From: a phage
Sequence record: PZ179883.1
Strand: one strand, 5' to 3'
DNA length: 64,000 nucleotides
Under the pieces are notes generated by a model. It did not search any database and was not told where the DNA came from. It was given only the letters and a program-made list of their open reading frames with translations. This document shows positions 16,733-62,123 of this stretch, in pieces. The position numbers and the translations under genes are program-made. Numbering within the stretch: position 1 is the first letter of the stretch; the number at the start of each line of letters is the position of its first letter.

Positions 16733-16755
16733 ATATCCTCACAGTTAATAATTAA

Positions 16756-18083: not shown

Positions 18084-19219
<1,136 letters not shown>

Positions 19220-19462
19220 TCAAACAGACTTTTTCACAATTTTCCAATCAGCTTTAAACTGTTCAACGTCAGAATGATAAATCCAGAATCCTGCGCTTTC
19301 TCCATCCTCATAAAGAGGGCATCCATCGCATTCATCTTCCCATCCCATATCACGTAAAAGATGTTCGGCTTTTTCAACGAGATCAGAATCTTTACCGATG
19401 ATATTAAAATACCATTTACCTTTAACTTCTGAATCTTTGATGCTCTGACGTTGTAATCTCAT
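19220..19462 (-). CDS. hypothetical protein (frd.1 position)
   Basis: Start placed at the internal ATG 19460-19462 with GGAG RBS, because an early-promoter motif lies inside the longer track ORF. Confidence 0.45.
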   Translation of the reverse strand: MRLQRQSIKDSEVKGKWYFNIIGKDSDLVEKAEHLLRDMGWEDECDGCPLYEDGESAGFWIYHSDVEQFKADWKIVKKSV

Positions 19463-19487
19463 TTTATTCTCCTTAGTTGATAAGGCT

Positions 19488-19516
19488 ATAGTATCACTAC
19501 CATAGCCCGTTGTAAA
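19488..19516 (-). promoter_or_regulatory. early promoter (T4-type sigma-70)
   Basis: Minus strand: GTTTACA, 17 nt, TACTAT preceded by TGG. Confidence 0.5.
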
Positions 19517-19519
19517 CAA

Positions 19520-19780
19520 TTATTTTTGAATTTTATCGAGCCACTTACCAAGCTTAATCATTTCTTTAGTAGCCTTTTCCATACTTCTGAACTTAACCAA
19601 TAGAGGATAGGTATCGACACCCATAACTAAACTGGTTACAAGACTGTGTTCACCCACAAGCCATAACGAATACGTTTGAATATCGAGTCCGTAATTTCTG
19701 TCTTTATGGACCCGTACACCCATCACTTCAAATTTCTCACTAGCTTTTTCTACCGCATCCAGGAAATCATCTTTAGTCAT
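19520..19780 (-). CDS. hypothetical protein (frd.2 position)
   Basis: ORF trimmed to the second Met to remove a 41-nt overlap with the upstream ORF; start uncertain. Confidence 0.4.
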   Translation of the reverse strand: MTKDDFLDAVEKASEKFEVMGVRVHKDRNYGLDIQTYSLWLVGEHSLVTSLVMGVDTYPLLVKFRSMEKATKEMIKLGKWLDKIQK

Positions 19781-19781
19781 A

Positions 19782-20183
19782 TTAGGCCTTAAAAGTTTTT
19801 CGCAAAAGTTCAATGATTTCATCTACATTGTTTTCGTCTACAATGCAGTGAATTTTTGTTACGCCAGAAACCTTGTCTTCGACTTCATCTTCTTCAGAAG
19901 TCGGTTCTTTATACTCGCGGAAACAATAAAACTCTTCTTCACTAAGTTCAAAATAATCATCACCTATGCCATCATCATTATAGATTTCGCCATTAGCGCA
20001 AATGATTTCGGTTACATAATCAAAGCCATCTAAACTTGATATTGATTTAACTTCAAACCAACCGCCATTTTCTTGAATGATGCTGACCATATTAGCATTT
20101 GATGAACTAATATCAATGAAAGATTTAATACGGTGTGGATTTAACTCATATTTTTGCCGATTTCCATTTTTGATTTTCCTCAT
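19782..20183 (-). CDS. hypothetical acidic protein (frd.3 position)
   Basis: 133-aa ORF; no clear RBS so the start is uncertain. Confidence 0.4.
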   Translation of the reverse strand: MRKIKNGNRQKYELNPHRIKSFIDISSSNANMVSIIQENGGWFEVKSISSLDGFDYVTEIICANGEIYNDDGIGDDYFELSEEEFYCFREYKEPTSEEDEVEDKVSGVTKIHCIVDENNVDEIIELLRKTFKA

Positions 20184-20213
20184 TTTGATAGGGGCTTGAC
20201 AGCCCCTTGATAA

Positions 20214-20441
20214 TTATTGTTCGATCAGTCCCATGTAAAATTCTGCGTCTTCAGCATCCATACCATCACAATATTCATTAGCCATAAAGCGGGTGAGGTC
20301 TTCAAGAGGACCTTCAATAACGATTTGAATGCTCCAAAACTTAGAATCTTGTACGCTTGTGATACTAAGTTCAGGATAACGATTACGAATAATTTCTTCA
20401 ATATATTCAAAATCAACGATGTCAATATCAACTTTAGCCAT
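20214..20441 (-). CDS. hypothetical protein
   Basis: Start at MAKVDIDIV with AAGAGGA RBS; sits between the gene 32 terminator/early promoter and the frd.x ORFs. Confidence 0.5.
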
Positions 20442-20484
20442 ATTATTTTCCTCTTTAATCATCAGCAGTATTGCCGATAGTTGT

Positions 20485-20513
20485 ATAGTACCATAGAAGA
20501 ACAGAGATGTAAA
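20485..20513 (-). promoter_or_regulatory. early promoter (T4-type sigma-70)
   Basis: Minus strand: GTTTACA, 17 nt, TACTAT; immediately downstream of the gene 32 terminator. Confidence 0.55.
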
Positions 20514-20538
20514 CAGTTTTGTGAAAAATTTTTGAAAT

Positions 20539-20563
20539 AAAAAAGGGGACCTCTAGGGTCCCC
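20539..20563 (-). terminator. rho-independent terminator downstream of gene 32
   Basis: 7-bp GC-rich stem (GGGGACC / GGUCCCC) followed by UUUUUUAUUU on the minus strand. Confidence 0.65.
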
Positions 20564-20585
20564 AATTAATTAGTAATATAATCTA

Positions 20586-21494
20586 TTAAAGGTCATTCAA
20601 AAGGTCATCCAGGTCCGTGTCATCAGCACTAGATGAACTGCCAGAGCTTGAGCTCATAAAATCATCTTCAGTTTTTGTTTTGAAGTCATCAACATTGAAT
20701 GCATCCAAATCATCAGCAACTTTATCGGCTTTCTTAGCGGCAGTTGCTGCGGCACCGCCCATAGCAGCAGTTCCCATAACTTGACTGAACTTAGTGCTCA
20801 GTTCTTCAAACGATTTGAATTTATCTTTAGAAGTCATTTCAGAAAGGTCAACCATTTGTTCGAACAGTTCTTTCTGGAAAGATTCATCATCAATGTTTGG
20901 AATCGCAGATTGATTCAGGAATTTAGATTCGTCGTAGTTACTAAAACCAGAAACTTGTTTAACTTTCAGTACAAAGTTAGCACCTTCCCACGGACAAGTT
21001 ACATCAACCGGAGTTTCACCCATTTCAACATCAACTGCAATCATTGCATTGATTTTATCCCAAATTTTCTTACCGAAACGGTATTTAAATACTTTACCTT
21101 CATTTTCTGGAGCAGCTGGGTCTTTTACTACAAGAATGTTAGCCCAGTAAGAAGTTTTACGTTTAACAAGACCATACTCTTTATTGTCAGTGTTATACAA
21201 ATCATTTTTACTGATGTACTGACATACTGGACAAGAATCGTAATCACCGTAGGTAGATGAGCATGTTTCGATATACCATTTACCATTTTTCTTGAAACCG
21301 TGATTTACAAGAAGTGCGAATGGTGCTTGTTCATCATTTTTAGACGGAAGAAAACGAATTACTGCTTGGCCGTTACCCGCATTGTCGAGTTTCAGTTTCC
21401 ACTCGCCTTTATCTTCAGAAGAAAAACCACCTTTATTTCCAGCCAGTTTAGCCATTTGTGCAGCGAGTTCAGCAGTAGATTTACGTTTAAACAT
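20586..21494 (-). CDS. 32: gp32 single-stranded DNA-binding protein
   Basis: 302-aa [22 protein letters not shown]... with acidic Ser/Asp-rich C-terminus; matches T4 gp32. Confidence 0.92.
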
Positions 21495-21565
21495 TTTTAT
21501 TTTCCTTTTTAATTTAATTAACAGTTGGTGCTATGACGATGTATGACCTCATAGCTGGTCAGTGA
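21495..21565 (-). promoter_or_regulatory. gene 32 5' leader / candidate autoregulatory translational operator
   Basis: Leader contains UUAAUUAAAUUAAAAAGGAAAAUAAAAAUG, an A/U-rich unstructured tract before the RBS like the T4 gp32 operator. Confidence 0.45.
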
Positions 21566-21570
21566 GATAA

Positions 21571-21578
21571 TTATAATC
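21571..21578 (-). promoter_or_regulatory. late promoter TATAAATA upstream of gene 32
   Basis: Minus-strand TATAAATA in the 59-32 intergenic region. Confidence 0.5.
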
Positions 21579-21594
21579 TATTTATAATAAGCAA

Positions 21595-22248
21595 TTAATA
21601 CTTACAAGATTTCACAGTTTCAATGAAAACACTTTTGGCTTTCTGTGAATCAATATTTAAAATTTTTCTATAAGCCTTTAACTTTATAGAATAATTATTC
21701 CAGACTAAATTATCAGTCTGTTCATCATGTTTATCAATTATATTTAAAAACGAATCAAGCAAGATAAACGTCTCAAACGAAATTATATTCGATTGAAGTA
21801 GTTTAAAAATATAACTTGATTGAACTTTTGGATTATATTCAAAAATTTCTTTAAAAGCAGAAACTTCAACTTTTTTACTAAAATAATAAATGTTGCGAAT
21901 ATCTTCTTCAAACTTAAATTTAATTTGCTTTAAGCGTCCGATATATTCACGATAAAACACAAGTGCATCAGCGTCAGAGATGTCACCAATCCAAGCATCC
22001 TGGTTAGCAACAAGATTGCTTATAAAGATTAAAGCAAGTTCCTTTAATTTATATTTTTCTGATAACTTCTGGAAAAAATACTTATCCCTTCGCTTTTGAT
22101 AAGCGGCATCAGACACCCGCATGCACCAATTATACTTAATTACATCATACTTTCCATTCATATGTTGTTTTATCATTAAGTATAATTTATAAACTGATTT
22201 ACCATCAATGTATCTTTCACCACCAGCAGGCATGCGGAGTTTAATCAT
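21595..22248 (-). CDS. 59: gp59 helicase-loading protein
   Basis: 217-aa ORF matches T4 gp59 in sequence and length. Confidence 0.88.
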   Translation of the reverse strand: MIKLRMPAGGERYIDGKSVYKLYLMIKQHMNGKYDVIKYNWCMRVSDAAYQKRRDKYFFQKLSEKYKLKELALIFISNLVANQDAWIGDISDADALVFYREYIGRLKQIKFKFEEDIRNIYYFSKKVEVSAFKEIFEYNPKVQSSYIFKLLQSNIISFETFILLDSFLNIIDKHDEQTDNLVWNNYSIKLKAYRKILNIDSQKAKSVFIETVKSCKY

Positions 22249-22583
22249 AGTAGAAAATCTAATGTATTAGTTTTTTCACAACGAACAACAGAAGGACGTA
22301 AAAGATTTTCGTCAATGGCTTCTGACTGAATTTTTTCAATTATACCCGAAGGAATAAATTTAGCAAATTGAGTTTCAGGAATAGAGTTTTCTTCTAAGAA
22401 TGCTGTTGTAGCTTCAAGATAACTCATTCCAAACTCTTCTACCATTTTTTCAATAATAAATCCATTTTCTTGACGATCAAGAAGCTTTGCTATTTCATCC
22501 TTTTCTTTCTTGATTGAAAGTTCTTTTTCTGAAAGACCGGTCTCATCGACCGGACGAATATCATTTAGAGAAAACTGTGTCAT
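22245..22583 (-). CDS. 33: gp33 late-transcription co-activator
   Basis: 112 aa from MTQFSLNDIRPVDETGLSE...; matches T4 gp33. Confidence 0.88.
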   Translation of the reverse strand: MTQFSLNDIRPVDETGLSEKELSIKKEKDEIAKLLDRQENGFIIEKMVEEFGMSYLEATTAFLEENSIPETQFAKFIPSGIIEKIQSEAIDENLLRPSVVRCEKTNTLDFLL

Positions 22584-22830
22584 AAAGTTCAACTACCTCT
22601 TCAGTTTCAGCTTCAAACACATCACGGTTATCTTTATGATACAAAGCTAAAAGACGATTAAACATCTTACCATCAACGCCAAGTTCATCTTTGGCGCGAA
22701 TTCGAATATCTTTAATCAATTCATTATAACCAGAAATTTTCAGTTTATGGTCAGATGCTTCTTTGATAAATTTAGCTAAGTCTTCGCCGTGGATAGCTTC
22801 ATCAAATTCAACCATTTCTTTTTTAGCCAT
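22561..22830 (-). CDS. dsbA: DsbA, double-stranded DNA-binding protein
   Basis: 89-aa ORF between rnh and 33, as in T4. Confidence 0.8.
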   Translation of the reverse strand: MAKKEMVEFDEAIHGEDLAKFIKEASDHKLKISGYNELIKDIRIRAKDELGVDGKMFNRLLALYHKDNRDVFEAETEEVVELYDTVFSK

Positions 22831-22838
22831 TATTCACC

Positions 22839-23756
22839 TCAAAATTCATTAATGCTATTAGTTAATTTAGAAAGACCCGCTTTTACAAAATATGAATAAA
22901 TTTTGCCACGCGGTGGTAATTTATATGAATTATAGTAATTCACAATGTTTGAAGCAATATTATCAGGAATATAATCAAAATCAATTAGAACTAAATTTTC
23001 TTTATATCGATTATATTCAGATTCAGTGAGAAGCACCTTAGCTTGCTCACGGTCATTAGCAATAGCTTCAACAACAGATGTTTTCATTGAAGGAGTTCGT
23101 TCACCTTCAACTCTGGTAAACCAAAAGTCAGATCGTACTTTAACTGAAGCAACGTTATCCTTTTTATCACCTTTAAGGATTTTAGTCATACAGTCAATTT
23201 CAGCAGAACCGCTTTTAATTTTAACCCATTTCTTATGCATCGGTGACCATTGCTTAACATTTGGATATTTGTGAAGCTGTGTAAAGTCACCATCCGATGA
23301 AATGATTAAAATCTTATGTCCTTCTAAAGAGAACTTTTTAACAAGAACAGCAATGTGGTCATCTGCTTCATACTTATCAATATCCATAACAATGTATGGC
23401 ATATAAGCTTTCAATTCATCTATAACTTTATGGCTGGATTCAAAATAACCTTCCCAGTCCCAAGTAGATTCTTCTCGTGCTTTTCCGCGGTTTTTCTTAT
23501 AATAATAAGCAAAATCACGACGCCAGTATCCGGATTTTGCGTTATCGATACACAGTACAATTTTAGTGTATCCAAGAGTTTTTGCTTTTTTGACATTAAA
23601 CTTAATTGAGTTCAATATCAAATGACGAACCATTGATAAGTTAATTTTTTCTTTATCTGGAAAGTTTACTAGAGCAGTTGAAAGCGCAATTTGACTAAAG
23701 TCAATCAAGCAAATTCCTTCTTTGTAATCTTCATCCAGCATCATTTCTAAATCCAT
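22839..23756 (-). CDS. rnh: RNase H / 5'-3' exonuclease (FEN-like)
   Basis: 305 aa from MDLEMMLDEDYKEGICLIDFSQIALS...; matches T4 RNase H. Confidence 0.9.
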   Translation of the reverse strand: MDLEMMLDEDYKEGICLIDFSQIALSTALVNFPDKEKINLSMVRHLILNSIKFNVKKAKTLGYTKIVLCIDNAKSGYWRRDFAYYYKKNRGKAREESTWDWEGYFESSHKVIDELKAYMPYIVMDIDKYEADDHIAVLVKKFSLEGHKILIISSDGDFTQLHKYPNVKQWSPMHKKWVKIKSGSAEIDCMTKILKGDKKDNVASVKVRSDFWFTRVEGERTPSMKTSVVEAIANDREQAKVLLTESEYNRYKENLVLIDFDYIPDNIASNIVNYYNSYKLPPRGKIYSYFVKAGLSKLTNSINEF

Positions 23757-23785
23757 ATGAACCTCGTTCAATTAGTGAGATTTCT

Positions 23786-23814
23786 ATTATATACTATCTA
23801 AATCTTAAAGTAAA
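23786..23814 (-). promoter_or_regulatory. early promoter for rnh
   Basis: Minus strand: GTTTACT, 17 nt, TATAAT; divergent from the gene 34 late promoter. Confidence 0.55.
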
Positions 23815-23818
23815 CAGG

Positions 23819-23826
23819 TATAAATA
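23819..23826 (+). promoter_or_regulatory. late promoter TATAAATA for gene 34
   Basis: Exact TATAAATA 35 nt upstream of the gene 34 ATG. Confidence 0.7.
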
Positions 23827-23860
23827 CTTATTATTGAAAACACAATAGGAGCCCGGGAGA

Positions 23861-26800
23861 ATGGCCGAGATTAAAAGAAAGTTCAGAGCAGAAGATGGTC
23901 TGGACGCAGGTGGCGATAAAATAATCAACGTAGCTTTAGCTGATCGTACCGTAGGAACTGACGGTGTTAACGTTGATTACTTAATTCAAGAAAACACAGT
24001 TCAGCAATATGATCCAACTCGTGGATATTTAAAAGATTTTGTAATCATTTATAATAATCGTTTTTGGGCAGCAACGGATAATATTCCAAAACCTGCTGGA
24101 AATTTTAATAGAATTCGTTGGAAAGCATTACGTACTGATGCCGTATATACAACTGTATCATCTGGACCATATCAATTAAAATCCGGAGAAGCAATTTCAG
24201 TAGATACATCAGTTGGCAATGACATTGAGTTTACTTTACCACCTTCTCCGCTTGATGGAGAAACCGTAATAATTCAAGATATCGGTGGAAAACCTGGCAT
24301 AAATCAGGTTAAAATAAATTCTTCAAATCAGAGTATTGTCAATTTTAGAGGTGAACAGGTACGTTCAGTTTTAATGACTCATCCAAAGTCACAGATGGTA
24401 TTCATTTTTAATAATCGTTTGTGGCAAATGTATATTGCTGATTATAGCAGAGAAGCTGCGATTGTTACTCCATCGACTGCATATCAAGCACAATCTAATG
24501 ATTTTATCGTGCGTAGATTTACTTCCGCTGCGCCGATTAATATTAAACTTCCGAGATTTGCTAATCATGGCGATATTATTAATTTCGTTGATTTAGATAA
24601 ATTAAATCCACTTTATCATACAATTGTCACGACATATGATGAAACAACTTCAGTACAAGAAGTTGGAACTCATTCTATTGAAGGCCGTACATCGATTGAC
24701 GGTTTCTTGATGTTTGACGATAATGAGAAATTGTGGAGATTGTTTGACGGGGATAGTAAAGCACGTTTACGCATTATAACAACTAATTCAAATATTCGTC
24801 CAAATGAAGAAGTCATGGTATTTGGCGCGAATAATGGAACAACCCAAACAATTGAACTTCAGCTTCCGACTGATATTTCTGTTGGTGATACTGTTAAAAT
24901 TTCCATGAATTACATGAGAAAAGGACAAACAGTTAAAATCAAAGCTGCTGGTGAAGATAAAATTGCTTCTTCAGTTCAATTGCTGCAATTCCCAAAACGC
25001 TCAGAATATCCACCTGAAGCTGAATGGGTGACTGTCCAAGAATTAGTTTTCAATGGTGAAACTAATTATGTTCCGGTTTTACAACTTGCTTATATAGAAG
25101 ATTCTGACGGAAAATACTGGGTTGTACAACAAAACGTTCCAACGGTTGAAAGAGTCGATTCTTTAAATAATTCTACTAGAGCAAGATTAGGCGTAATAGC
25201 TTTAGCTACACAAGCTCAAGCTAACGTCGATTTAGAAAATTCTCCGCAAAAAGAATTAGCAATTACACCAGAAACATTAGCTAACCGTACTGCTACAGAA
25301 ACTCGTAGAGGTATCGCAAGAATAGCAACTACTGCTCAAGTGAATCAGAACACCACATTCTCTTTTGCTGATGACCTTATCATCACTCCTAAAAAGCTGA
25401 ATGAAAGAACTGCTACAGAAACTCGTAGAGGTGTAGCTGAAATTGCTACGCAGCAGGAAACTAATACAGGTACTGATGATACTACAATCATCACTCCTAA
25501 AAAGCTTCAAGCTCGTCAAGGTTCTGAATCATTATCTGGTATTGTAACCTTTGTATCTACTGCAGGAGCTACTCCAGCTTCTAGTCGTGAATTAAATGGT
25601 ACAAATGTTTATAATAAAAACACTAATAATTTAGTTGTTTCGCCTAAAGCTTTGGATCAGTATAAAGCTACTCCAACGCAACAAGGTGCAGTAATTTTAG
25701 CAGTTGAAAGTGAAGTAATTGCTGGACAAAGCCAAGAAGGATGGGCAAATGCGGTTGTAACGCCAGAAACGTTACATAAAAAGACATCAACTGATGGAAG
25801 AATTGGTTTAATTGAAATTGCTACGCAAAGCGAAGTTAATACAGGAACTGATTATACTCGTGCAGTCACTCCTAAAACTTTAAATGGCCGTAAAGCAACT
25901 GAAAGTTTAACTGGTATAGCTGAAATTGCTACGCAAGTTGAATTCGACGCAGGCGTCGACGATACTCGTATCTCTACACCATTAAAAATTAAAACCAGAT
26001 TTAATAGTACTGATCGTACTTCTGTTGTTGCTCTATCTGGATTAGTTGAATCAGGAACTCTCTGGGACCATTATACCCTTAATATTCTTGAAGCAAATGA
26101 GACACAGCGTGGTACACTTCGTGTAGCTACACAAGTTGAAGCTGCTGCAGGAACATTGGATAATGTTCTAATAACTCCTAAAAAGCTTTTAGGTACTAAA
26201 TCTACTGAAGCGCAGGAAGGTGTTATTAAAGTTGCAACTCGGTCTGAAACTGTAGCTGGAACGTCAGCAAATACTGCTGTATCTCCAAAAAATTTAAAAT
26301 GGATTGTGCAGAGTGAACCTACTTGGGCAGCTACTACTGCGATAAGAGGTTTTGTTAAAACCTCATCTGGTTCAATTACGTTCGTTGGTAATGATACAGC
26401 GGGTTCTACGCAGGACTTAGAACTATATGAGAAAAATAACTATGCAGTATCACCATATGAATTAAACCGCGTATTAGCAAATTATTTGCCGTTAAAAGCA
26501 AAAGCTGTAGATAGTAATTTATTAGATGGTTTAGATTCACTCCAGTTCATTCGTAGGGATATTGCGCAGACGGTTAATGGTTCACTAACCTTAACACAGC
26601 AAACAAATCTGAGTGCCCCTCTTGTATCATCTAGTACTGCTACATTTGGTGGATCAGTTTCAGCAAATAGTACATTAACTATTTCTAATACTGGAACGGC
26701 AACTCGTCTGATTTTTGAGAAAGGACCTCAAACTGGAACAAACCCGGCTCAAACGATGACAGTCAGAGTGTGGGGAAATCAATTTAGTGGGGAGTCAGAC

Positions 26801-29575: not shown

Positions 29576-32500
29576 ATGGCTACTTTAAAACAAATACAAT
29601 TTAAAAGAAGCAAAACCGCAGGTCAACTTCCTGCTGCTTCAGTATTAGCCGAAGGTGAATTGGCTATTAATTTAAAAGATAAAACAATTTTCACAAAAGA
29701 TGACTCAGGCAATGTTATAGAATTAGGTTTAAAATATGGAGGAACAATTGATGGTTCTTTAACTGTTAATGGAAATATAATTGGAAATTTAACAGGTAAC
29801 GCTGCAACTGCAACGAAATTAAAAACAGCACGAAAAATTAATGGTATATCATTTGATGGGTCAAAAGATATCACGCTAACTCCATCTGACATAAATGTCA
29901 ATAGCACAACGTTTATAAAAAATAACGGCGAATTACCGGTTGATGCTAATTTAGATGAGTATGGGCCCATTGAAGAATATCTTGGTGTTTGGTCGAAATC
30001 TACTTCAACAAATGCGCAACCGGCAAATAAATTCCCAGAAGAAAATGCCGTAGGTGTACTAGAAGTATTTGTGGCCGGTCAATTTGCTGGTACTCAGAGA
30101 TATACTGTAAGATCTGGTAACGTATATGTTCGATCTTTGTCTGCTAAATGGAACGGTGTTAACGGTCCGTGGGGAGTTTGGCGTAATGTTCAAGCGTCAA
30201 CTCGTCCACTTTCACAAACGATTGACCTTGATAGCTTGGGAGAATTAGAACATTGTGGCTTATGGCGAAACAGTTCAAGCGCAATCGCATCATTTGATCG
30301 CCATTATCCAGAAGAAGGATCAGCCGCACAAGGATTTTTAGAAATATTTGAAGGTGGTTTATACGCGAGAACTCAGCGTTATACAACTAGATCTGGTGTT
30401 GTTTATACTCGCTGTCTTGCTGCTGCATGGGATGCTTCTGCGCCTAAATGGGGACCGTGGCAACAAGTCGGTAATGTCACACCGGCGACTTTCTATGACG
30501 GAGACCTGAATGATTTTAAAGCTCCTGGGTTATATAACATTTTAGGCACTGACGCAGTTACTAACCGTCCAGTTGCAGAAGGCGTTCCGGTTGAGATGAC
30601 CGGATTGCTTGAGGTTAAACAGCGTGCTTCCGGTGGCGCTATTTTCCAACGTTTCACTACCGCAGGAACGGGTGCAACTACGCGATCTCGCGTGTTTGAA
30701 CGTGCAATGACAAATAATATCTGGGGAAATTGGTACGAAGTATATACGTCCTATTCTATGCCAATTACTTTGGGTATGGGTGGTATTAAAACTCAATTAG
30801 CGGAGCTAGATTGGCAAACATTTGATTTTGTTCCTGGTAGTATGTTTAGCGTTCCTTTGAACAAAATAAAGAACATGCCAGCTAATATGGATTGGGGTAC
30901 GATTGACGGAAACTTAATTATGTTTTCTGTTGGTCCTAGCGAGCACACCAGCACAGGACGTACTGTTCAGGTTTGGCGTGGTACTGTATCCCAGACAAAC
31001 TACCGTTATTTTGTCGTTCGTGTATTCGGTAATTCAGGAAATAGAACTTGCACAGTTCGACGCGTTGTTCTTGAAGATGGTCGCCACAAATGGACAGCGC
31101 AACAAGATTTTAATGGTGCAGTTAACTTCGGTGCTCCTACCAATTTTAACTCTACTGTTAACCTTAATAACACTACCACATTTAAAACAGAAGTTAAATT
31201 CCGCTCATCTAATGCATTCCGTATGTATGGCGGAAAATTTGGTACAATTTTCCGTAATGATGGAGAGAGTCTTTATATTCTTTCTACCGACGAAGATGAC
31301 CAAGATGGAAACTTTAATACAAATAGACCTTTCCGTTATGAATTAAGAACTGGCGATGTTACTTTAGGTGGTGCTAGTGGTGCTAACGTTTTAAAATTAG
31401 AACGTAGTTCGCTTGCTGCCACCTTTGGTGGTGATGTTAACTTAAATAAAGGTACACTGACGTTTGAAGCTGGTCGCTTAAACTCCCGCGATTATTTTAA
31501 ATTTAACCATTGGGGTGATAGTAATAATGCTCGTGATAACATCATCCAGTTAGAAGATAGTCAAGGCGCCCATTTTTCCACTGAACGTACTTTAGCGACA
31601 GGTGCAATTAAAACTCGTTTCTTTGGCGAAACATTCACTGATGGTACATTATACCTAAATCAGATGAATAATAGCTCTGAACGATTCTCTATTAATAATT
31701 GGGGAAATTCAGAAGTTGGTCGCGCGGCAGTGATGGAAGTCAGTGATTCCAAAGGTTATCACTTCTATACGGAACGCAGGACAGATAACAGTTTGAATTT
31801 TGATGTTGCTGGCAATTTTACTGCGCATGGACCTTCCGGAATAACCATCAAAAACTCAACTGGTGCACGACATATCTGGTTTAGAGATGATAGCGATGCA
31901 GAAAAGGCTGCTATCTGGGCTACAGATGAGGGTATTTTACATATTCGCAATAATCATGGGGGTTCATTTAGTCATCACTTCCAGGGTGCAATGATTCTAG
32001 CGGGAGAGCGTGTTCCATATAATGGTGAATACGCTCTTATCCGTGGTAATATTTCCGGTGGTGCATGGGTAGACTGGCGAGATCGTCCGGCTGGATTGTT
32101 GGTAGACTGTCAGGACTCACGAAATCAAGCATATAACATTTGGAAAGCTACTCATTGGGGCGAACAGCACCTTGCGGCGATGGGTGTTCATGCTGGCGGT
32201 GGTAATCCTCATGTTGTATTGCATGTGGGTGGGAATGATTATGCATTTGCATCTAACGGTGATTTTACTGCTGGTGCTGCTGTATATTGTAACGACGTTT
32301 ATATTCGTTCTGACCGTCGTCTGAAAATTAATGTTGAAGACTACGAAGAAAATGCGGTGGATAAGGTAAATAAACTCAAAGTTAAAACCTATGATAAAGT
32401 TAAATCTCTTTCTGACCGCGAAGTTATCGGCCATGAGATTGGTATTATCGCACAGGATTTGCAAGAAGTATTACCGGAAGCTGTTAGCACTTCTAGTGTC

Positions 32501-32662
32501 GGATCTCAGGATAACCCAGAAGAAATTTTAACAATTTCAAACTCTGCTGTGAACGCGCTTTTAATTAAGGCCATTCAGGAAATGAGCGAAGAAATTAAAG
32601 AATTGAAAACGCCTCTCTTTACTAAAATTGCTCGCAAAATTAGTAAATATTTTAAATTCTAA
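29576..32662 (+). CDS. 37: long tail fibre distal subunit gp37 with C-terminal intramolecular-chaperone-like domain
   Basis: 1028-aa ORF; last ~117 aa (from [14 protein letters not shown]...) resemble the self-cleaving chaperone domain of T5 L-shaped fibre and endosialidases. Confidence 0.88.
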
Positions 32663-32668
32663 CAACAA

Positions 32669-32686
32669 GGGGGAAATGCCCCCTTT
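32669..32686 (+). terminator. hairpin after gene 37 (weak terminator or mRNA-stabilising stem)
   Basis: GGGGG-AAAUG-CCCCC followed by only UUU; 6 nt after the gene 37 stop. Confidence 0.35.
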
Positions 32687-32698
32687 GGAGTATAAATT

Positions 32699-33481
32699 AT
32701 GGCAGTAGTTGGAGTTCCTGGCTGGATTGGAAGTTCAGCCGTAAATGAAACGGGCCAGCGCTGGATGAGTCAAGCAGCTGGTCAATTAAGATTGGGTGTT
32801 CCTTGCTGGATGAGTCAATTTGCAGGTCGCTCAAGAGAAATTATTCATACACTTGGAGCAGACCATAACTTCAACGGTCAATGGTTCCGAGATAGGTGTT
32901 TTGAGGCAGGTAGTACACCTATAGTGTTTAATATCACTGGAGATTTAGTATCATATTCTAAAGATGTTCCTTTATTCTTCATGTACGGAGATACACCGAA
33001 TGAATATGTTCAACTGAATATACACGGTGTAACGATGTATGGCCGTGGCGGGAATGGCGGTAGCAATAGTCCTGGCTCAGCTGGGGGTCATTGTATTCAA
33101 AATGATATTGGTGGGAGACTAAGAATTAATAATGGCGGAGCTATTGCTGGCGGCGGTGGCGGCGGCGGTGGCGGATATTATTCTCCTTTTTCACAAATGA
33201 GATTGACCTTTGGCGGTGGCGGCGGTCGTCCGTTTGGCGCTCCGGGCGGATCTATTGATATGCAATCAGGAGCAACTGCTGGTACTATTTCTGCGCCAGG
33301 CGCAGGGTCTGTGAACGGTATCTATAACGGCGGGTCTGGTGGTGAAGTTGGATCCGCAGGGGGTAGATGTAATATTCGTGGTCAAGGATATGAATACGAT
33401 GGCGGTGCTGCTGGTTATGCCGTCATAGGGTCTACACCGACATGGCAAAACGTTGGAGCAATATATGGTCCAAGAGTATAA
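32699..33481 (+). CDS. 38: gp38 receptor-recognising adhesin (T2/T6 type)
   Basis: 260-aa ORF with poly-glycine motifs ([16 protein letters not shown]) flanking variable segments; T4 gp38 is a 183-aa chaperone instead. Confidence 0.82.
33149..33226 (+). repeat. GGC/GGT glycine-codon simple repeats in gene 38
   Basis: GGCGGCGGTGGCGGCGGCGGTGGCGGA at 33149..33175 and GGCGGTGGCGGCGGT at 33212..33226. Confidence 0.7.
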
Positions 33482-37528: not shown

Positions 37529-37673
37529 GCATGACTGTGATAACTGTCATGATAACGCGTTGAATTCCGAACGCAAGAAGACCTCCTGCTACGGCTGGAA
37601 CAACACCTAAACCCGCCAGTAAAATGCTACCAGATACTAATGCCGCGCTTGTAATACCTATGAATGGACTCAT
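37524..37673 (-). CDS. small hydrophobic membrane peptide
   Basis: 49-aa ORF MSPFIGITSAALVSGSILLAGLGVVPAVAGGLL..., ATGA overlap with gene 52 stop; strong terminator right after. Confidence 0.4.
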   Translation of the reverse strand: MSPFIGITSAALVSGSILLAGLGVVPAVAGGLLAFGIQRVIMTVITVMQ

Positions 37674-38998
37674 TTGATTTCCTCTAAATCTTTAGTGTAT
37701 TCTGTAACTACATCAGTAGTTTTCCAATATTCGTTTTCTTCTTTTTTGGCTTTAGCTTCTTCAGCAAGTTTCTTTGCTTCGTCGGAAGTCATATGAAAAA
37801 TGTTCATTCCAACTAGTTTATCAACATAAGAAGAATACATATCAATTTTAGAAAGTTCTTCGGTCAGTTCTTTGCGAGTTTTACCTTGTACAACAATTTC
37901 ACCTGAAATTACTTTCTTAATGAAATGTGCCTTGGCAAAAGCTAAACGAAATGCTGATTCAGTTTCTTTGATTTTGTTATCAATTCGTTTTTGGACATAA
38001 GTTTTACGAACTTCAACGAAGTCTTTGATTAAATTAACTACATTATCGTAAACTTGCAGCTTTCCTTTCTCATTAATGACGGTAATATTCTGGGAACGAC
38101 GCTCAATCAACCCGAAGTCTTTCATAATTTTTGCATGGCGTTCTTCTTCATTATCGCTCAAAGAGTATTCTTTTCGGAATTTAACTTTGAAGCCAAAGCC
38201 ATGCTCACCACAAGCATCATCCCATGTAATGAAGCCTTTATCTTCAAGCGGGTCTAAGATTTTACTCACATAAGTTTCACGATCATACTTATATGGAATC
38301 TCAGTGATATGCATTTGAGTTCGTGAAGTAAACTTATATGTTCCACGAATTTCATATTGCCCATCAATTTCAACGACTTCACCACGAAATTCTGGGAATT
38401 CTACCTTCGGTTTAGTTACTTTCTTTCCTTGAAGAGCTTGCAGTACAGCTTTCTTGACAGAAGAAACACTATGAGGAAGAATGTAAGTTGCATAACCAGT
38501 TGCAATACCGGAAACGCCATTAAGAAGAACAGTAGGAATAATAGGCAAATAGAAAGCAGGCGGAATGTGTTCTTTATCTTGATGTACTGGAGCATATTCA
38601 GTATCTTTATATACGTTATAGAAATTTTTACTTACACGAGCAAAAATATAACGACTTGCTGCTGCCTTTTGGACAGTACGAGAACCAAAGTTTCCTTGAC
38701 CGTCTAACAGAGGAAAGTTATTATTCCAAGTGTTAGCCATCAAAGCACCTGCGTCTTGTGCAGAGTTTTCACCATGATGATATCCAAGGTCCGCTACACC
38801 GCCTGCGATAGAAGCGAGTTTGTGAAACTTATCTTTATTTCCTCGTGCCAAATCAAGAGCTCGAGCAATAACAAATCGTTGAACTGGCTTAAATCCGTCA
38901 ATCATATTTGGAATGGCACGATTTTCAACCGTGTACATAGCATAAGCCAATGCTTCATTATCAATGATACTTTTTAAATCACGATTATTCAGTTGCAT
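37670..38998 (-). CDS. 52: DNA topoisomerase II medium subunit gp52 (GyrA-like)
   Basis: 442-aa ORF with the catalytic-tyrosine region; matches T4 gp52. Confidence 0.92.
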   Translation of the reverse strand: MQLNNRDLKSIIDNEALAYAMYTVENRAIPNMIDGFKPVQRFVIARALDLARGNKDKFHKLASIAGGVADLGYHHGENSAQDAGALMANTWNNNFPLLDGQGNFGSRTVQKAAASRYIFARVSKNFYNVYKDTEYAPVHQDKEHIPPAFYLPIIPTVLLNGVSGIATGYATYILPHSVSSVKKAVLQALQGKKVTKPKVEFPEFRGEVVEIDGQYEIRGTYKFTSRTQMHITEIPYKYDRETYVSKILDPLEDKGFITWDDACGEHGFGFKVKFRKEYSLSDNEEERHAKIMKDFGLIERRSQNITVINEKGKLQVYDNVVNLIKDFVEVRKTYVQKRIDNKIKETESAFRLAFAKAHFIKKVISGEIVVQGKTRKELTEELSKIDMYSSYVDKLVGMNIFHMTSDEAKKLAEEAKAKKEENEYWKTTDVVTEYTKDLEEIK

Positions 38999-42943: not shown

Positions 42944-42954
42944 AATTTTCCTTA

Positions 42955-45132
42955 TTAGGCCGCAAGGGCCTTCATAGTTTTAGCGATTTGAGAAACTTCA
43001 TCATCACTTAAAGAGTTGCGATAACCGATGAAGTCGGAAACAATACGGAATTTCTTGGTAAACTCAGCAACCATTTTATCACTGTTTTTTGAAGCATTAT
43101 TTGATAATACATCAAAAAGATTAGTTACTGTCCAGATGTCATGACCGATGGTATCTTTTCCACCGTTGAAATATACACCCTGTAATGAACTAACCATATT
43201 AGCGAGTCGTGTATATTCTTCAGAAACTTCATCTACACTGAAGTACTTCATCATAAAATCTAGTTCAGGATACTTGATAATTTTATCAATATATCGTTTA
43301 GCTGAACTTGAATAACCTACATACTTATCATAATCTACATCATCAAAAGCATCTACATATAAATCACGCAGAGTTTCAAAAATACATTGGCACTGACCAA
43401 GTTCTTTTACCTTTTTCTGTAAAAGCGGACGAATAACATAAAATTCATTAATGCCAATAAGATTAGCTATACGAATCAAAATATTCGTAGATGGATGACA
43501 AAGCGATGTAGTACCATCCATAGAGAAAATATCAGAACGATGCATGTATGCTACATAACCAGTAATTTCATCTGCTTCTGATGTGAGCGTAAACAGTTCC
43601 TCTTTTTCCCAGCGCCCGTCTTTAATTTCAAACTTAAATGCAGTAGCAGTTTTAGGACGAGAAGCTGTACTTTTTACTGCCTTTGGAATATAACTTTTAA
43701 CTAAAGCCTCAATTTCTGACAAATAATGAATGTTAACTTCATCACTTTCAAACATCGCCATAATATCAGGGAGTAAATCAATTTGTGATTCTACTTCCGG
43801 ATTAATAAACAGAAGGCGTTCGTTGTGATGAATATTCAAAGTGTTATTAAATTCATTATCATCTAACGCACGTGCTAATCCACGGACAATATTAACACGA
43901 TTTTTAATATTATCAATAACGATATTAATTTTTGTTGTATTAATACCAAACAGACGATAACTTGATGCAACGGCTGAAGTTTCATGGCTTTGCTTAATGC
44001 GCTTCAGTCGAGGGTCAAGATTTACTTCATACACAACTCCTGCATTGCATAACTTACTATCAGGTTCAAACATACTCTGCATCTTCTTATATGACAGATT
44101 TTTAGTCGTGAATTTGACTGAATTGCTAATCATATAATCTCGAGCAGAATATCCCATCTTCATCAATTCACGGTATGTATGACGAGGAGATGTAGATTCT
44201 TTAAATCGTTTTACATCTTCATTAAATGCCTTCTCACTGAGCTCTTTAACACGCTCAATAATATTTTTACGAGTACGATCATCTAGTGAAAGAGCCTCGC
44301 GAGATGGAGCAATATCAAGTGAACCCATTGGAAACTTAATGTAATTCACTTCATTGCGAATGCTTAGCCAGTTACGGTCTCTAATAACACCATCGATAGG
44401 ATAAACAATACCGCCATAGATAGCATATAATCCACCACGATCAGGCCAGTATCTTTCTGGATTTACACCGTAATAGTCATCAAAATCCGGAAAATAATCA
44501 ATTTCGCGGTCAAGACCATTAATGATAGCCAAATCTTTGAATGGTCGCATGATATAAGAAACTTCATAAGCAAAGTTTCTAAAGTCTTTTTCTTCAACTG
44601 GAACTACGATTTCAATACCAGTTTTATCATCTGGACCCATTTCTTTTACGAATGTAGGTTTAATCTGTGGACCATCACCATCCATGTAAGCTACATAACC
44701 ACGAATTTCACCTTTATGATACGAAGTAATACTAAATGTATCAGTATAACTAAACGGAGATTTAGAACCTAAACCAAACCCGCCAATAAAGTCATTAGAT
44801 TCAGCCTTAGATGAACTGAAGTATGAATTATATAACCCAGGAGAATTATCATCACCCTGAATATCAAAATCACTCATACCCGGACCAAAATCTCGACAAA
44901 CAAATCGCGGATCTAATCGTCCTGGAACTTGTATGATAAATTTTTCAGGATTTCCATTAAGTGCATGGGCATCAATCATATTAGTAATTAATTCACGGAC
45001 TACTGCACGAATCTTGTTTGTATACAAATCAGATGACAGAATTTTAAATACTTTAGGAGATGCTGTGATGCTAAATGCTTTTGATTTAGAACCATTGCCA
45101 AGAATTGTTTCTTTTTCAGTGGTGATAATCAT
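42955..45132 (-). CDS. rIIA: rIIA protein
   Basis: 725-aa ORF (T4 rIIA length) with N-terminal ATPase-like region; 11-nt gap to rIIB. Confidence 0.92.
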
Positions 45133-45142
45133 AATTTCCTCA

Positions 45143-45346
45143 TTAATTCATATTACGCTTAATAACTTCAGCAACTTCTAGTAATTCATCTTTAGTTGCA
45201 GTGTCGGATTGAATTTTATCTCTAATATCTTTAAAGCGGTTTTTAAATTCTTCGGCTTCTCCCATATCGAAAAAGCGTTGAATGATTCTATATTCTCGAT
45301 GAACTGCTTTATCAAAAAGTTCTAAATTTACTTTATATGATTTCAT
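45143..45346 (-). CDS. hypothetical protein
   Basis: 67-aa ORF downstream of an early-promoter motif. Confidence 0.5.
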
Positions 45347-45371
45347 TTCAATATCCTCATTTGCCCAATTA

Positions 45372-45400
45372 ATTATACCACATCCTTGTGGTAAAGTAAA
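45372..45400 (-). promoter_or_regulatory. early promoter (T4-type sigma-70)
   Basis: Minus strand: GTTTACT, 17 nt, TGGTATAAT; between gene 39 and ORF 45143..45346. Confidence 0.55.
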
Positions 45401-47218
45401 CTACTGGCTCATCCATTCTTTACGAAGGTCAGCATTATCTCCCATGAGCATTTCAAAAAGCTCTTTCCAGTTCTCAGGAAGTTTAACAACATCATATACT
45501 GGATTTTGAATCATCTCACGATATTCAGATTTTTCCAAAGAGCCAAGTCCTTTAATATAACGGATGCTATGTTTAGGTAGAGCATCTTTAGCACTCTCAT
45601 ATTCAGCGACTGTATAAAACCATTCTTGTTTTTTACCAATCTGTGCGATGATTACAGGAGTTTTGACAAAGCGAATTCGTCCTTGCTCAAACAGTTCTGG
45701 CCAATTACTAAAAAATCCAAGCAGAGAAGGATAAATGCTTCCTAGACCATCATGGTCAGCATCAGTCATAATAGCAATATTATGATAATTCAAGTTTTCA
45801 GCTTTTTCACCGAGAACTAATCCAGTGATTGCGCAAATATCAAACAGTTCTTTGTTTTTAAGCATGTCAGCATATGACATACCCCAACTGTTGAGAACTT
45901 TACCACGTAATGGATAACCACCATGAAGTTCTTTATCACGAACATCAATAAGATATCCGATAGCAGAATCACCCTCAGTCAAGAAAAGAGTAGTGTCAGC
46001 ATCTTTACCGCAAAGATTCGCTTTAATATGTTTATGAACCTTAGCTTTAGAAGCCTTTTTAGCTGCTTTAGTTTCTGCTGCTTTTTCTGCCGCTAATTTA
46101 CGAGCCAAAGCAGCTTCAATAATTGGCATTAAAATTGCTTCATTATTTAGAATAGCACGTGAAATCTTTTTAGCATCAAGTTGAATATGACTACGGATTT
46201 CACCAAATGGAGAAGTCAAACGCTCTTTAGTTTGAGAATCAAATCGCATGTTTTTCATATCACGGACAAACATAACGATAGTCAAACATTCTTTAACGCG
46301 TGCTTTAGTCACATCAATTTTGAACTTACGTTTGATTTGTGGAATAAGGTCTTCACAAATATCATCCATAACACAGTCAATGTGATGGCCACCATTCTTA
46401 GTGTGAATGTTATTCACATAAGTTAATTGACGAAAACCATCCGGTGAACGACCAACCGCAATAGAGCAATTTTCTTGTTCTTGAACGATAGCATGCTCAT
46501 CATATTGGCGTGCATATTTCTTAAAATTGCCCTGAACCTTTTTACCATTAAAGGTAAATTGAATATCAGGATAAACTACTGCAAGTGTCTGGAGACGATC
46601 TAGTGTAATGTCAAGATAAACTTGGGACAGCTCATTAGTTTCAAATGACATAAAATCAGGAATGAAAGTAACACGAGTTCCTTTCCATTTTCCTGGAATA
46701 GTTTCCCATGATTTATTTTCCATGCCATTTGAACAACGAACTACAATATTATTTTGACCATCACCAGTTTCACCGACAAACATCACAGAAAAAATGTTTG
46801 TCAAACTAGAACCAACACCATTCATACCGCCAGTGACGCGTTCTTTATCATCACCAAAGTTACCGCCTGCTTTTGGAATAGTCCAGGCAGCAACAGGACC
46901 AGGAATTTCTTCACCAGTAGGTGTTTTAACCATCGCCTGTGGAATACCGCGACCGTTATCTTCAACTGTTACTTGATTGTTTTTAATAGTAACATTAATT
47001 TTATTTGCGAATTTAAACTTAGTACGAATACCTTCATCTACTGAGTTATCGATAATTTCATCAATAAGCTTAACAAGACCAGGTACATACTGAACACTTT
47101 CCCATTTACCAAACAGAAAGCGCTCATGCATTTCATTAGCGGAAGAGCCAATGTACATGCCGCTACGCTTTTTGATATGTTCAATATCGCTCAGAATTTT
47201 AATTTCATTCTTAATCAT
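45401..47218 (-). CDS. 39: DNA topoisomerase II large subunit gp39, uninterrupted (covers T4 genes 39 plus 60)
   Basis: Single 605-606 codon ORF with GHKL ATPase N-terminus and TOPRIM C-terminus; no stop, gap or bypass element. Confidence 0.9.
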   Translation of the reverse strand: MIKNEIKILSDIEHIKKRSGMYIGSSANEMHERFLFGKWESVQYVPGLVKLIDEIIDNSVDEGIRTKFKFANKINVTIKNNQVTVEDNGRGIPQAMVKTPTGEEIPGPVAAWTIPKAGGNFGDDKERVTGGMNGVGSSLTNIFSVMFVGETGDGQNNIVVRCSNGMENKSWETIPGKWKGTRVTFIPDFMSFETNELSQVYLDITLDRLQTLAVVYPDIQFTFNGKKVQGNFKKYARQYDEHAIVQEQENCSIAVGRSPDGFRQLTYVNNIHTKNGGHHIDCVMDDICEDLIPQIKRKFKIDVTKARVKECLTIVMFVRDMKNMRFDSQTKERLTSPFGEIRSHIQLDAKKISRAILNNEAILMPIIEAALARKLAAEKAAETKAAKKASKAKVHKHIKANLCGKDADTTLFLTEGDSAIGYLIDVRDKELHGGYPLRGKVLNSWGMSYADMLKNKELFDICAITGLVLGEKAENLNYHNIAIMTDADHDGLGSIYPSLLGFFSNWPELFEQGRIRFVKTPVIIAQIGKKQEWFYTVAEYESAKDALPKHSIRYIKGLGSLEKSEYREMIQNPVYDVVKLPENWKELFEMLMGDNADLRKEWMSQ

Positions 47219-47274
47219 CACTTATCCTCGTTTGGTTTCGGGAATATTATACTCCGGTAATCATAAAGCTAAAG

Positions 47275-47286
47275 GCCCGAAGGCCT
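47275..47286 (-). other. intercistronic UUCG-tetraloop hairpin
   Basis: Minus strand GGCC-UUCG-GGCC between the lipoprotein ORF and gene 39. Confidence 0.45.
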
Positions 47287-47287
47287 T

Positions 47288-47557
47288 TTATTTAAAACGA
47301 ATAGTTGAATCCTTAAAGAACAGCCCAGAACATACTGTTCCTTCTACTTTCTGCCCAGTAGGTCCAATAGCACGAAATCCAGTATGTTGGAAATCATTTT
47401 CAGAACAACCGAACCAGTTATATCCAGTGATTTCAATATTAGTAAAACCGCTTGAAGACAAAACTTTGGTTGCATTATCAGCATCAGTACATCCTACTAA
47501 AGACACTGCTAATACTAATGCCGCGATAGAACGATTAATATATTTCATAATTTTCAC
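47288..47557 (-). CDS. putative lipoprotein
   Basis: Signal peptide plus lipobox LVGC (MKIMKYINRSIAALVLAVSLVGCTD). Confidence 0.5.
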   Translation of the reverse strand: MKIMKYINRSIAALVLAVSLVGCTDADNATKVLSSSGFTNIEITGYNWFGCSENDFQHTGFRAIGPTGQKVEGTVCSGLFFKDSTIRFK

Positions 47558-47925
47558 TTAAATTTAATGGCTTGAAGAAGACTAATAATTCTCAAGCGAC
47601 TTCCTTCATCTTTAACTGTAAAAGAAAGAGGGTCACCAGATTTCATAGTGATAGTGCATTCAAAAGCAAAACCTTCGGGAACTTCTTCGAAGAAGTCAAA
47701 TTCTTCATCATAAATTAGAACATTACTCTGAAAACTGTGAAGAATTTTTCCGTCATTTCCAGATGCTGTACTAATCATTGTAACATTATTACCTTTCATA
47801 TCTTCAACGATAAATTCGCTTGTAGATATTACAGCATTAATAGAACCATTCCTATAAATAGCAGAAAATAGATATTTCTTTTCTTCACCTTCGCGAATGC
47901 GATATTTCTTACCGATTTTAAACAT
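47554..47925 (-). CDS. hypothetical protein
   Basis: 123-aa ORF. Confidence 0.5.
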   Translation of the reverse strand: MFKIGKKYRIREGEEKKYLFSAIYRNGSINAVISTSEFIVEDMKGNNVTMISTASGNDGKILHSFQSNVLIYDEEFDFFEEVPEGFAFECTITMKSGDPLSFTVKDEGSRLRIISLLQAIKFK

Positions 47926-57934: not shown

Positions 57935-57949
57935 GTAATTCTCCTTTAT

Positions 57950-58159
57950 TTAAATTACATGACTATTTATAATAAATTCTTGCGGAACGTTAAAATACCC
58001 AATTTTAGTTAATATAACAACATCACCGTTAATAATTACCGGAGAATAATCGGCTGGAGCATTAAACTTCCAATGAGCTCTAATATTATATCCATCAGAA
58101 CCAAATGCTCAACTAGCCGGTCTCCCGGCTTTTTGCCATGCATAAAAATCAAATTTCAT
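57950..58159 (-). pseudogene. 68-codon ORF interrupted by an in-frame TGA (possible pseudogene or recoding site)
   Basis: Hand translation: MKFDFYAWQKAGRPAS-TGA-AFGSDGYNIRAHWKFNAPADYSPVIINGDVVVILTKIGYFNVPQEFIINSHVI; no Met after the stop. Confidence 0.35.
57963..57970 (-). promoter_or_regulatory. late promoter TATAAATA for soc
   Basis: Minus-strand TATAAATA about 29 nt upstream of the soc ATG. Confidence 0.6.
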
Positions 58160-58356
58160 TTTGAATGCTCTATAATTAATTTTAAGGCTTCTTCATGCAC
58201 CTTACCTAATTGTATATGTCCAGTTTTAATTGTGTAAGCTTTGTGGAGCTGATTAGATAGGAGCTCGTATGTGAGCTCCTTGTCATAATTTTTAAATAGC
58301 TGGTCAATACGTTTCTTGTGGGCTTTCTTAAGTTGACGTTTATTTAAACGAGCCAT
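58156..58356 (-). CDS. hypothetical basic protein
   Basis: 66-aa Lys-rich ORF immediately downstream of gene 56. Confidence 0.45.
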   Translation of the reverse strand: MARLNKRQLKKAHKKRIDQLFKNYDKELTYELLSNQLHKAYTIKTGHIQLGKVHEEALKLIIEHSK

Positions 58357-58871: not shown

Positions 58872-58934
58872 CATTATTTTTCCTTTCAATTCATTAATAA
58901 GTTAAATAATTATATCATTTGAGTATGTAAGCAA

Positions 58935-60274
<1,340 letters not shown>

Positions 60275-60302
60275 TATATCATCCTCAGCAATTTATTTTA
60301 TA

Positions 60303-60331
60303 ATACCATAACAAGCTGAGAAAGTAAACAA
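60303..60331 (-). promoter_or_regulatory. early promoter upstream of the 186-aa nuclease-like ORF
   Basis: Minus strand: GTTTACT, 17 nt, TGGTATTAT. Confidence 0.5.
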
Positions 60332-60373
60332 ATTTATGAAATTTGTGATAAATATTAATTTAAAGGAGGACAT

Positions 60374-61766: not shown

Positions 61767-62123
61767 TTAACCTCTATTCATAAAAGCATTAAAAATTTGG
61801 TCATCAATAGATGGAATAGCAACCTTTTCGGCATCATTTAGCAAATCATTAATTTCATCAGATAGCATAACACATGTGCCTTTATTTCCTGTAATTGTTA
61901 CTGCACAATTACGAACGTTTTCTTTATCAAATTTTAGGTTAATATTTTCGTAGTGAAAATCCTTTAATGCCGAGTATATCTTTAAAATGAAATTGTCTTT
62001 TACTACAATAAACCCAACTTCACTATTAAAACGTGGTTCATGGAAACTGTAATAAACCTTTTCATCTATGAAATCGTATGAAATTTTTTCCATTTTTAAA
62101 TATGAAAATTCAGAACTATACAT
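61767..62123 (-). CDS. hypothetical protein (61.2 position)
   Basis: 118-aa ORF. Confidence 0.45.
   Translation of the reverse strand: MYSSEFSYLKMEKISYDFIDEKVYYSFHEPRFNSEVGFIVVKDNFILKIYSALKDFHYENINLKFDKENVRNCAVTITGNKGTCVMLSDEINDLLNDAEKVAIPSIDDQIFNAFMNRG

Follow-up and report, generated by a model that had tools for sequence, protein, structure and literature searches.

In the 64,000-nucleotide stretch of phage DNA analysed here (sequence record PZ179883.1; hereafter the window), the gene for the large subunit of a type IIA topoisomerase, gene 39, is carried in one piece and almost certainly represents the parental "empty site" allele of the T-even phages, to judge from 64 nt within it that are identical to those of T2, the substrate nicked by the homing endonuclease MobA. 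An unsplit gene 39 is an ordinary and already described state in T4-like phages. It has long been established that T2, T6 and most T4-like phages have the gene in this form, its structure has been solved, and the origin of the T4 split through MobA and translational bypass has been worked out.

The large topoisomerase subunit as a single chain

Gene 39 lies on the minus strand at 45401..47218, stop codon included (605 codons plus stop), and codes for a large, GyrB/ParE-type subunit of a phage type IIA topoisomerase; an earlier note on this DNA had given the same coordinates, which proved exact. In the list of open reading frames, the frame runs over 45401..47221 (minus strand) and yields 606 amino acids when counted from a GTG at 47221, and an ATG one codon further in, at 47218, gives 605. 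Direct reading of the sequence revealed a Shine-Dalgarno motif, GAGGA (47225..47229, minus strand), 6 nt 5' of the ATG and 3 nt from the GTG, and we prefer the ATG as the start because of this 6-nt spacing. Translation from the ATG gives MIKNEIK, the N-terminus shared by the T2, T4 and T6 proteins.

Three Pfam domains stand in order along the protein. HATPase_c marks the GHKL ATPase core (residues 47-149; 46772..47080, minus strand; E 1.9e-9, 38.4 bits, cutoff 26.4), DNA_gyraseB marks the transducer, the second domain of GyrB (residues 250-384; 46067..46471, minus strand; E 1.5e-13, 51.1 bits, cutoff 27), and TOPRIM_C marks the C-terminal TOPRIM-associated domain (residues 519-604; 45407..45664, minus strand; 30.5 bits, cutoff 29), which corresponds to the C-terminal portion of gp60 in T4. 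PF01751, the Pfam model for the Toprim core, gave no match in gp39 at E <= 0.001, and the TOPRIM region is a predicted one, assigned from TOPRIM_C together with the alignment to the T6 structure. In a search of the PDB, residues 1-605 aligned end to end with the T6 gp39 chain 8ylu_C, the N-terminus aligned with the crystal structure of the T6 ATPase domain (9imj, residues 1-380), and the second-ranked structure was an engineered fusion of T4 gp39 and gp60 (8yo3_C). The claim that one open reading frame covers both the ATPase and the TOPRIM regions is thus borne out by the 605 codons, the Pfam domains and the full-length match to 8ylu_C.

The TOPRIM metal site of gp39 is made up of E415, D486 and D488 (PMC11461880). 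By alignment with T6 gp39, the codon for the first ligand, E415, falls at 45974..45976, and those for D486-A487-D488, which supply the DxD ligands, fall at 45755..45763 (both minus strand). Here E415 and D486-x-D488 are found within a single chain, whereas T4 divides them, E415 sitting on gp39 and the DxD residues on gp60.

Gene 39 is flanked by rIIA (42955..45132) and rIIA.1 downstream and by 39.1 upstream. The GyrA/ParC-type partner, gene 52, is also encoded in the window (37670..38998, minus strand; 442 aa; Pfam DNA_topoisoIV, E 1.6e-76). In T2 and T6, topoisomerase II consists of two subunits, gp39 and gp52, and has relaxation activity; for the active enzyme made of T6 gp39 and gp52, structures have been solved (8YLU, 8YO1 and 8YOD; PMC11461880). 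Taken jointly with the reading of gene 39 as the parental allele, we are nearly certain that gp39 and gp52 of this phage would likewise assemble into a two-subunit, A2B2-type type IIA topoisomerase, and the 99.7% identity to T6 gp39 suggests that its gp39 would support ATP-dependent relaxation. For annotation, we recommend the name topoisomerase II large subunit (gp39, full length) rather than 'gyrase B'.

The junction at which T4 carries the mobA cassette

When the window was compared with T4 by BLAST, 42944..45736 corresponded to T4 1..2793 and 45801..47550 to T4 3911..5661. Between these two blocks the window has 64 nt (45737..45800, minus strand) and T4 has 1117 nt (2794-3910), comprising the gp39 tail, the mobA remnant, the gp60 head and the bypass gap. 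On this BLAST map, the 64 nt are the parental segment that holds the MobA target and whose place the element has taken in T4-type genomes. Relative to T4, one breakpoint follows codon 473 and the other lies 9 nt downstream of the codon for Gly491. Their geometry is that of the clade-1 MobA element, for which Manning and Atkins described the 64-nt deletion and these boundaries (bioRxiv 10.1101/2022.08.31.505936).

Protein alignment gave the same picture. Residues 1-473 of gp39 align with residues 1-473 of T4 gp39, residues 477-491 (NYHNIAIMTDADHDG) correspond to residues 32-46 of T4 gp60, and residues 492-605 align with gp60 residues 47-160; no counterpart of the 43-residue tail of T4 gp39 or of the 31-residue head of gp60 was found in this alignment. 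At the DNA level, the position of the bypass gap maps between the codons for Gly491 (GGT) and Leu492 (CTA), at 45745..45746 (minus strand), where the sequence here is continuous and reads in frame GAT GGT CTA GGA, as against GAT GGA TAG...(50 nt)...TTA GGT in T4. In the alignment with T4 gene 60, the 50-nt gap, the take-off stop, the hairpin and the matched GGA take-off and landing codons were all missing from gene 39. Using the T4 MobA fragment and gp60.1 as tblastn queries, we obtained no match in the window, and a wider search for sequence related to mobA, the gp39 tail or the gp60 head, by tblastn and by blastn (word size 7) over all of the window, recovered just 46 nt at 76% identity, the equivalent of homR. 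The DNA alignment with T4 and the tblastn searches therefore uphold the earlier statement that the gene contains neither a mobA-like insertion nor a hairpin-and-stop bypass element.

The 64-nt segment shows no difference from T2 and two from T6, and across the 141 nt examined around the MobA target there are four differences from T2. Compared with the homR sequence that the T4 element encodes, 37/54 positions are identical (68.5%), a value inside the published range of 67-81% (bioRxiv 10.1101/2022.08.31.505936). According to later summaries of Bonocora et al. (2011, PNAS 108:16351), MobA nicks T2 gene 39 inside the segment that is later replaced by the element, mixed infection moves the whole MobA element into T2, and converted DNA is shielded from recutting by the 50-nt gap, not by the homR polymorphisms.

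These observations fit a model, which we hold to be nearly certain, in which the ancestral gene 39 would have encoded one polypeptide with ATPase, transducer and TOPRIM regions. The split into 39 and 60 seen in T4 would be derived, a MobA homing-endonuclease element of ~1.1 kb having replaced 64 nt of the gene, given both gene halves new tails and introduced the 50-nt bypass gap, which would guard the converted DNA against a second cutting. The gene 39 of the window would never have received the element. For the polarity of this scheme, from ancestral to derived, we rely on published work and on the split allele being the less common one.

A one-piece gene could also have been restored secondarily if an ancestor had held the MobA element and then lost it precisely, in a "hit and run" fashion. 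We judge this highly improbable, since the CTE/NTE tails or the bypass gap persist in lineages from which the element has gone, and none of these was detected in the window; moreover, the 64 nt match parental T2 at every position, and not homR. Along the gene, comparison with T4 gave a local divergence peak, with 15 differences in the 90-nt bin that contains homR, and no such peak was seen at the junction against T2 or T6. Recombination with an unsplit relative would leave the same sequence, yet the allele would still be the parental one.

We also considered whether the gene might really be split, the continuous frame having been produced by consensus or collapse errors in sequencing or assembly. 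A hidden frameshift or stop had been named in the earlier note as the finding that would count against an uninterrupted gene; inspection of the open reading frame found neither inside 45401..47218, and its length and frame equal those of T2 and T6. The chance of an artefact of this kind appears negligible, given that the 1818 nt and the reading frame match the independently sequenced T2 and T6 genes, that the protein is just 2-3 amino-acid changes from characterised ones, and that the uninterrupted junction is common to many other records. With a 161-nt query spanning the junction and one-piece alignment required, it was found in 452 phage records, and a T4 cassette query found the split allele in 43, both counts including laboratory derivatives of T4 and genomes entered twice, in RefSeq and in GenBank. 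The same 1818 nt in the same place in T2 and T6, together with the 452 records, also show that gene 39 is no chance open reading frame. Within the T4-like genus, an unsplit gene 39 is the usual state, outnumbering the split one roughly tenfold, and T4 departs from it. The emphasis of the earlier note, which had presented the gene as notable for being unlike T4, is accordingly reversed, the unsplit gene being about ten times commoner than the T4 arrangement.

Near-identity to T2 further suggests that this gene 39 would be sensitive to MobA. As the 64-nt target is intact and identical to that of T2, nicking and conversion would be expected on co-infection with a MobA-positive relative, for instance RB55, RB59 or HY01, T4-type phages in which mobA is intact. 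This phage is thus predicted to act as a recipient when MobA homes in mixed infections.

Homing-endonuclease loci, the td intron and an open reading frame beside dam

Six T4 homing-endonuclease loci lie within the span of the window and were surveyed (nine further T4 loci, segA-E, mobB-D and the nrdD intron with I-TevII, lie outside it). The mobA cassette in gene 39 is present in T4 and absent from T2, T6 and the window. So is the nrdB intron with its I-TevIII remnant: nrdB is a single, uninterrupted ORF of 389 aa in the window (12713..13882, minus strand) that is missing the 600-nt intron of T4, as the earlier note had stated. In the nrdA/nrdB interval, which was scored as mobE-positive in T4 and T6 and negative in T2 and the window, the nrdB-nrdA spacer is reduced here to 51 nt (13883..13933); T4 has nrdB.1 and mobE at this place, and T6 has a gene for a 213-aa endonuclease. 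The interval between genes 32 and 59, where T4 carries segG, is a spacer of 100 nt in the window (21495..21594), and segG is absent from T2 and T6 as well. In the soc-to-gene-56 interval (57935..58355, minus strand), a 66-aa ORF (58156..58356) replaces the segF of T4, an arrangement colinear with T6; segF is present in T4 and absent from T2, T6 and the window. The sixth locus, the td intron with I-TevI, is occupied in T4, T6 and the window and empty in T2.

The absence of seg and mob genes at their T4 positions was thus found for mobA, mobE, segG and segF. With those endonuclease proteins of T4 and T6 that were available as tblastn queries, we detected no endonuclease in the window besides I-TevI, and the stretches that the window has in excess of T4 (7184..7711, 9347..9667, 47554..47925, 58156..58356, 59714..60274 and 61767..62123) contained no homing endonuclease when scanned against Pfam and PHROGs.

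In the case of td, the intron has 1016 nt (17068..18083, minus strand) and is assigned to group I from the split open reading frames and from 96-99.9% identity to the td introns of T4 and T6, which have the same 1016 nt at the same insertion site. It separates exon 1 (18084..18632) from exon 2 (16756..17067; both minus strand and both placed from the split frames). When joined in silico, the 549 nt and 312 nt of the exons make 861 nt encoding a thymidylate synthase of 286 aa, equal in length to the unsplit td of T2. Outside its ORF, the intron is 96-99% identical to that of T4 td, which is self-splicing. Rfam Intron_gpI matched within it at a permissive threshold (39.5 bits, E 2.8e-8), under the gathering score of 50, and at gathering score Rfam returned zero matches over the whole window. 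The intron holds an intact I-TevI gene of 245 aa (17215..17952, minus strand), with the Pfam domains GIY-YIG, I-TevI_ZnF and I-TevI_DNA-bd all over their cutoffs; the protein is identical to that of T4 at 245/245 residues, and the gene is identical to those of T4 and T6 at 737/738 nt.

The surrounding td gene is of a different kind. Exon 1 of the window shares only ~75% identity with its counterparts in T4, T6 and T2, three phages that are nearly identical to one another in this exon, and it differs from T4 at 136/549 positions (24.8%). This exon-1 allele is rare, being matched at >=99% identity by 3 of 417 matching records. In the 57 nt that adjoin the intron, however, there are just two differences from T4 (P ~3e-5, binomial, against the exon background). 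A low-divergence tract of this sort is the pattern expected of co-conversion of flanking exon during homing, and it appears, from these alignments, that the td intron was recently acquired by homing into a divergent td allele.

These data bear on the proposal, made in the earlier note, that the source genome is a T2/T6-like one broadly free of homing-endonuclease insertions. Part of this stood: five of the six loci in the window are empty, no Seg/Mob relative was found elsewhere in it, and the gp38 adhesin it encodes is of the T2/T6 type. The td intron had been overlooked. With a complete I-TevI in that intron, near-identical to that of T4, and with a co-conversion tract pointing to acquisition by homing, the genome is not free of homing endonucleases, and we hold a broadly endonuclease-free genome to be unlikely. 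Nor is "T2/T6-like" a single state, since T2 is without the td intron and T6 has both the td intron and the 213-aa nrdA-nrdB endonuclease; the pattern of the window across the six loci matches neither phage. The genome should be annotated as negative for mobA, mobE, segF, segG and the nrdB intron, and as positive for the td intron with I-TevI.

An unprotected MobA target and, ~28 kb away, a td intron homed into a rare allele could together make this genome a natural snapshot of homing-endonuclease turnover, a reading to which we give even weight for and against. If it is true, the lineage (with its relatives ECO07P1, P3, P4 and P5) would provide matched before and after alleles for the spread of endonucleases in wild Tequatroviruses. 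It would add nothing new on gene 39 itself.

One of the stretches in excess of T4 is an open reading frame of 186 aa (59714..60274), whose stop and the start of dam (58935..59714) overlap. Both genes occur in T2, only dam in T4, and neither in the T6 record. The ORF is hypothetical or unannotated in all 164 phage records that contain it, and 11 relatives were all that emerged when 1.84 billion representative proteins were searched exhaustively with a profile. Homologues that are 55-63% identical again lie directly upstream of a D12-class adenine methyltransferase. Three residues with the spacing of a PD-(D/E)XK nuclease motif (D72, E85 and K87), together with a GTAIDS motif, remain unchanged in relatives as distant as 32% identity. 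Below-threshold matches to Pfam DpnII were obtained for five of seven family members (best E 8.3e-5), and the PADLOC type II REase model matched the ORF at E 9.1e-5, the sequence scores all lying under the curated thresholds; the distant members P0011 and P0013 matched no named Pfam family. The adjacent Dam matches the PADLOC 'orphan methyltransferase' model. DpnII-type enzymes act on GATC, which is the Dam site, and the link to an enzyme of this type that the shared site offers is suggestive only. An ORF with a putative restriction-endonuclease fold beside a supposedly orphan dam is the most unexpected item in the window.

Comparison with T2, T6 and T4

By BLAST, the window corresponds approximately to T4 125954 to 168903 followed by 1 to 21622, at 92-97% identity, although for the T4 stretch 147001-168903 the relevant part of the window was compared with T2 and T6 and inspected for open reading frames instead of being compared with T4 by BLAST. 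The closest records at the gene 39 locus are those of the Escherichia phages ECO07P4 and ECO07P5, at 99.7% identity, and in the phage collection no record matched 11000..24000 in one piece at >=99% identity. Over gene 39, nucleotide identity is 96.0% to T2 and 97.6% to T6, with no gaps, and 95.5% to the T4 composite.

In having gene 39 in one piece the window resembles T2 and T6, which agrees with the earlier note. The T6 gp39 also has 605 aa, of which 603/605 are identical; the two proteins differ at residues 526 and 527 (Q-I here, H-V in T6) and the genes at 43 nt, while domain order, metal site and the gp52 partner are the same, as is the location of the gene between rIIA.1 and 39.1. T2 has an unsplit gene 39 of 1818 nt, with 602/605 amino acids identical, three amino-acid and 73 nucleotide differences, and an identical 64-nt MobA target. 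It is colinear with the window from rIIA through 39.2, and differs from it in being without the td intron that the window carries.

In T4, the shared parts of genes 39 and 60 are ~95.5% identical to gene 39 of the window at the nucleotide level, and the flanking genes and the enzyme are the same. T4 nevertheless has ~1053 nt more at this locus, which encode the 43-aa tail of gp39, a mobA pseudogene with 60.1, and the 31-aa head of gp60. A recoded homR of 15 codons and the 50-nt gap, with its take-off GGA, UAG and hairpin, likewise belong to T4 and are absent here.

Small ORFs and the dam block

Three ORFs in the window, all on the minus strand, are additional to those found at the corresponding positions in T4. 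A 175-aa ORF (7184..7711) in the cd.2/cd.3 interval and a 123-aa ORF (47554..47925) in the 39.1/39.2 interval both matched PHROGs 622 and 3710, together with weak matches to goF-like families, and therefore look like paralogues in one small-protein family that is dispersed across the early region. The third, a 106-aa ORF in the pseT/pseT.1 interval (9347..9667), belongs to PHROG 2364 (unknown function), and T6 also carries an ORF in this position.

At the place of T4 gene 61.2, we identified a 118-aa minus-strand ORF (61767..62123) that matched the Pfam family AdfA (anti-DarT factor A; E 2.3e-8). The match covers positions 113-211 of the 211-position profile and is confined to its C-terminal half. 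The ORF may be a shortened variant of this anti-defence protein.

When the loci were compared, window positions 58914..60363 corresponded to 16156..16425 of the T6 record AP018814, which has no dam gene anywhere between genes 56 and 61. Together, dam (58935..59714) and the adjoining restriction-endonuclease-like ORF (59714..60274) make up a 1.45-kb block that is present in the window and absent from this T6 record as one unit.

Tail-fibre genes and a hairpin upstream of gene 39

The distal tail-fibre gene 37 and gene 38 (29576..33481, plus strand) were compared with their T2 and T6 counterparts and searched against Pfam. BLAST of gene 37 against T2 gave no match across about 29725..33398; the T6 gene is largely colinear with that of the window. 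Gene 38 (32699..33481, plus strand) was assigned by Pfam GP38 to the adhesins of the T2/T6 type, rather than to the chaperones of the T4 type.

Immediately behind the 39.1-like ORF, at a distance of about 50 nt upstream of gene 39, the minus strand contains a GC-rich hairpin capped by a UUCG loop (AAAGGCC-TTCG-GGCCTTT; 47271..47288), and a TATAAT-like element comes after it. A simple terminator scan missed the hairpin, because it lacks a following T-run.

The split td gene and its junction with frd

The td gene (16756..18632, minus strand) is interrupted by a 1016-nt group I intron, whose intact homing endonuclease, I-TevI, is identical to that of T4 at 245/245 residues. The exon 1 allele is rare, and its identity to T4, T2 and T6 is only about 75%; a level of at least 99% was seen only in the phage records ECO07P1, ECO07P3 and CJY920. 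Unlike the rest of the exon, its last 57 nt, adjacent to the intron, contain just 2 differences (P about 3e-5), a pattern that resembles a homing co-conversion tract.

As in T4, td and frd overlap in the window (18624..18635). In T2 and T6, the two genes are separated by a 348-nt ORF (T2 138742..139089; T6 143968..144315) that has no counterpart in the window or in T4. The td-frd junction of this phage is thus T4-like, although its gene 39 (45401..47218) is T2/T6-like.
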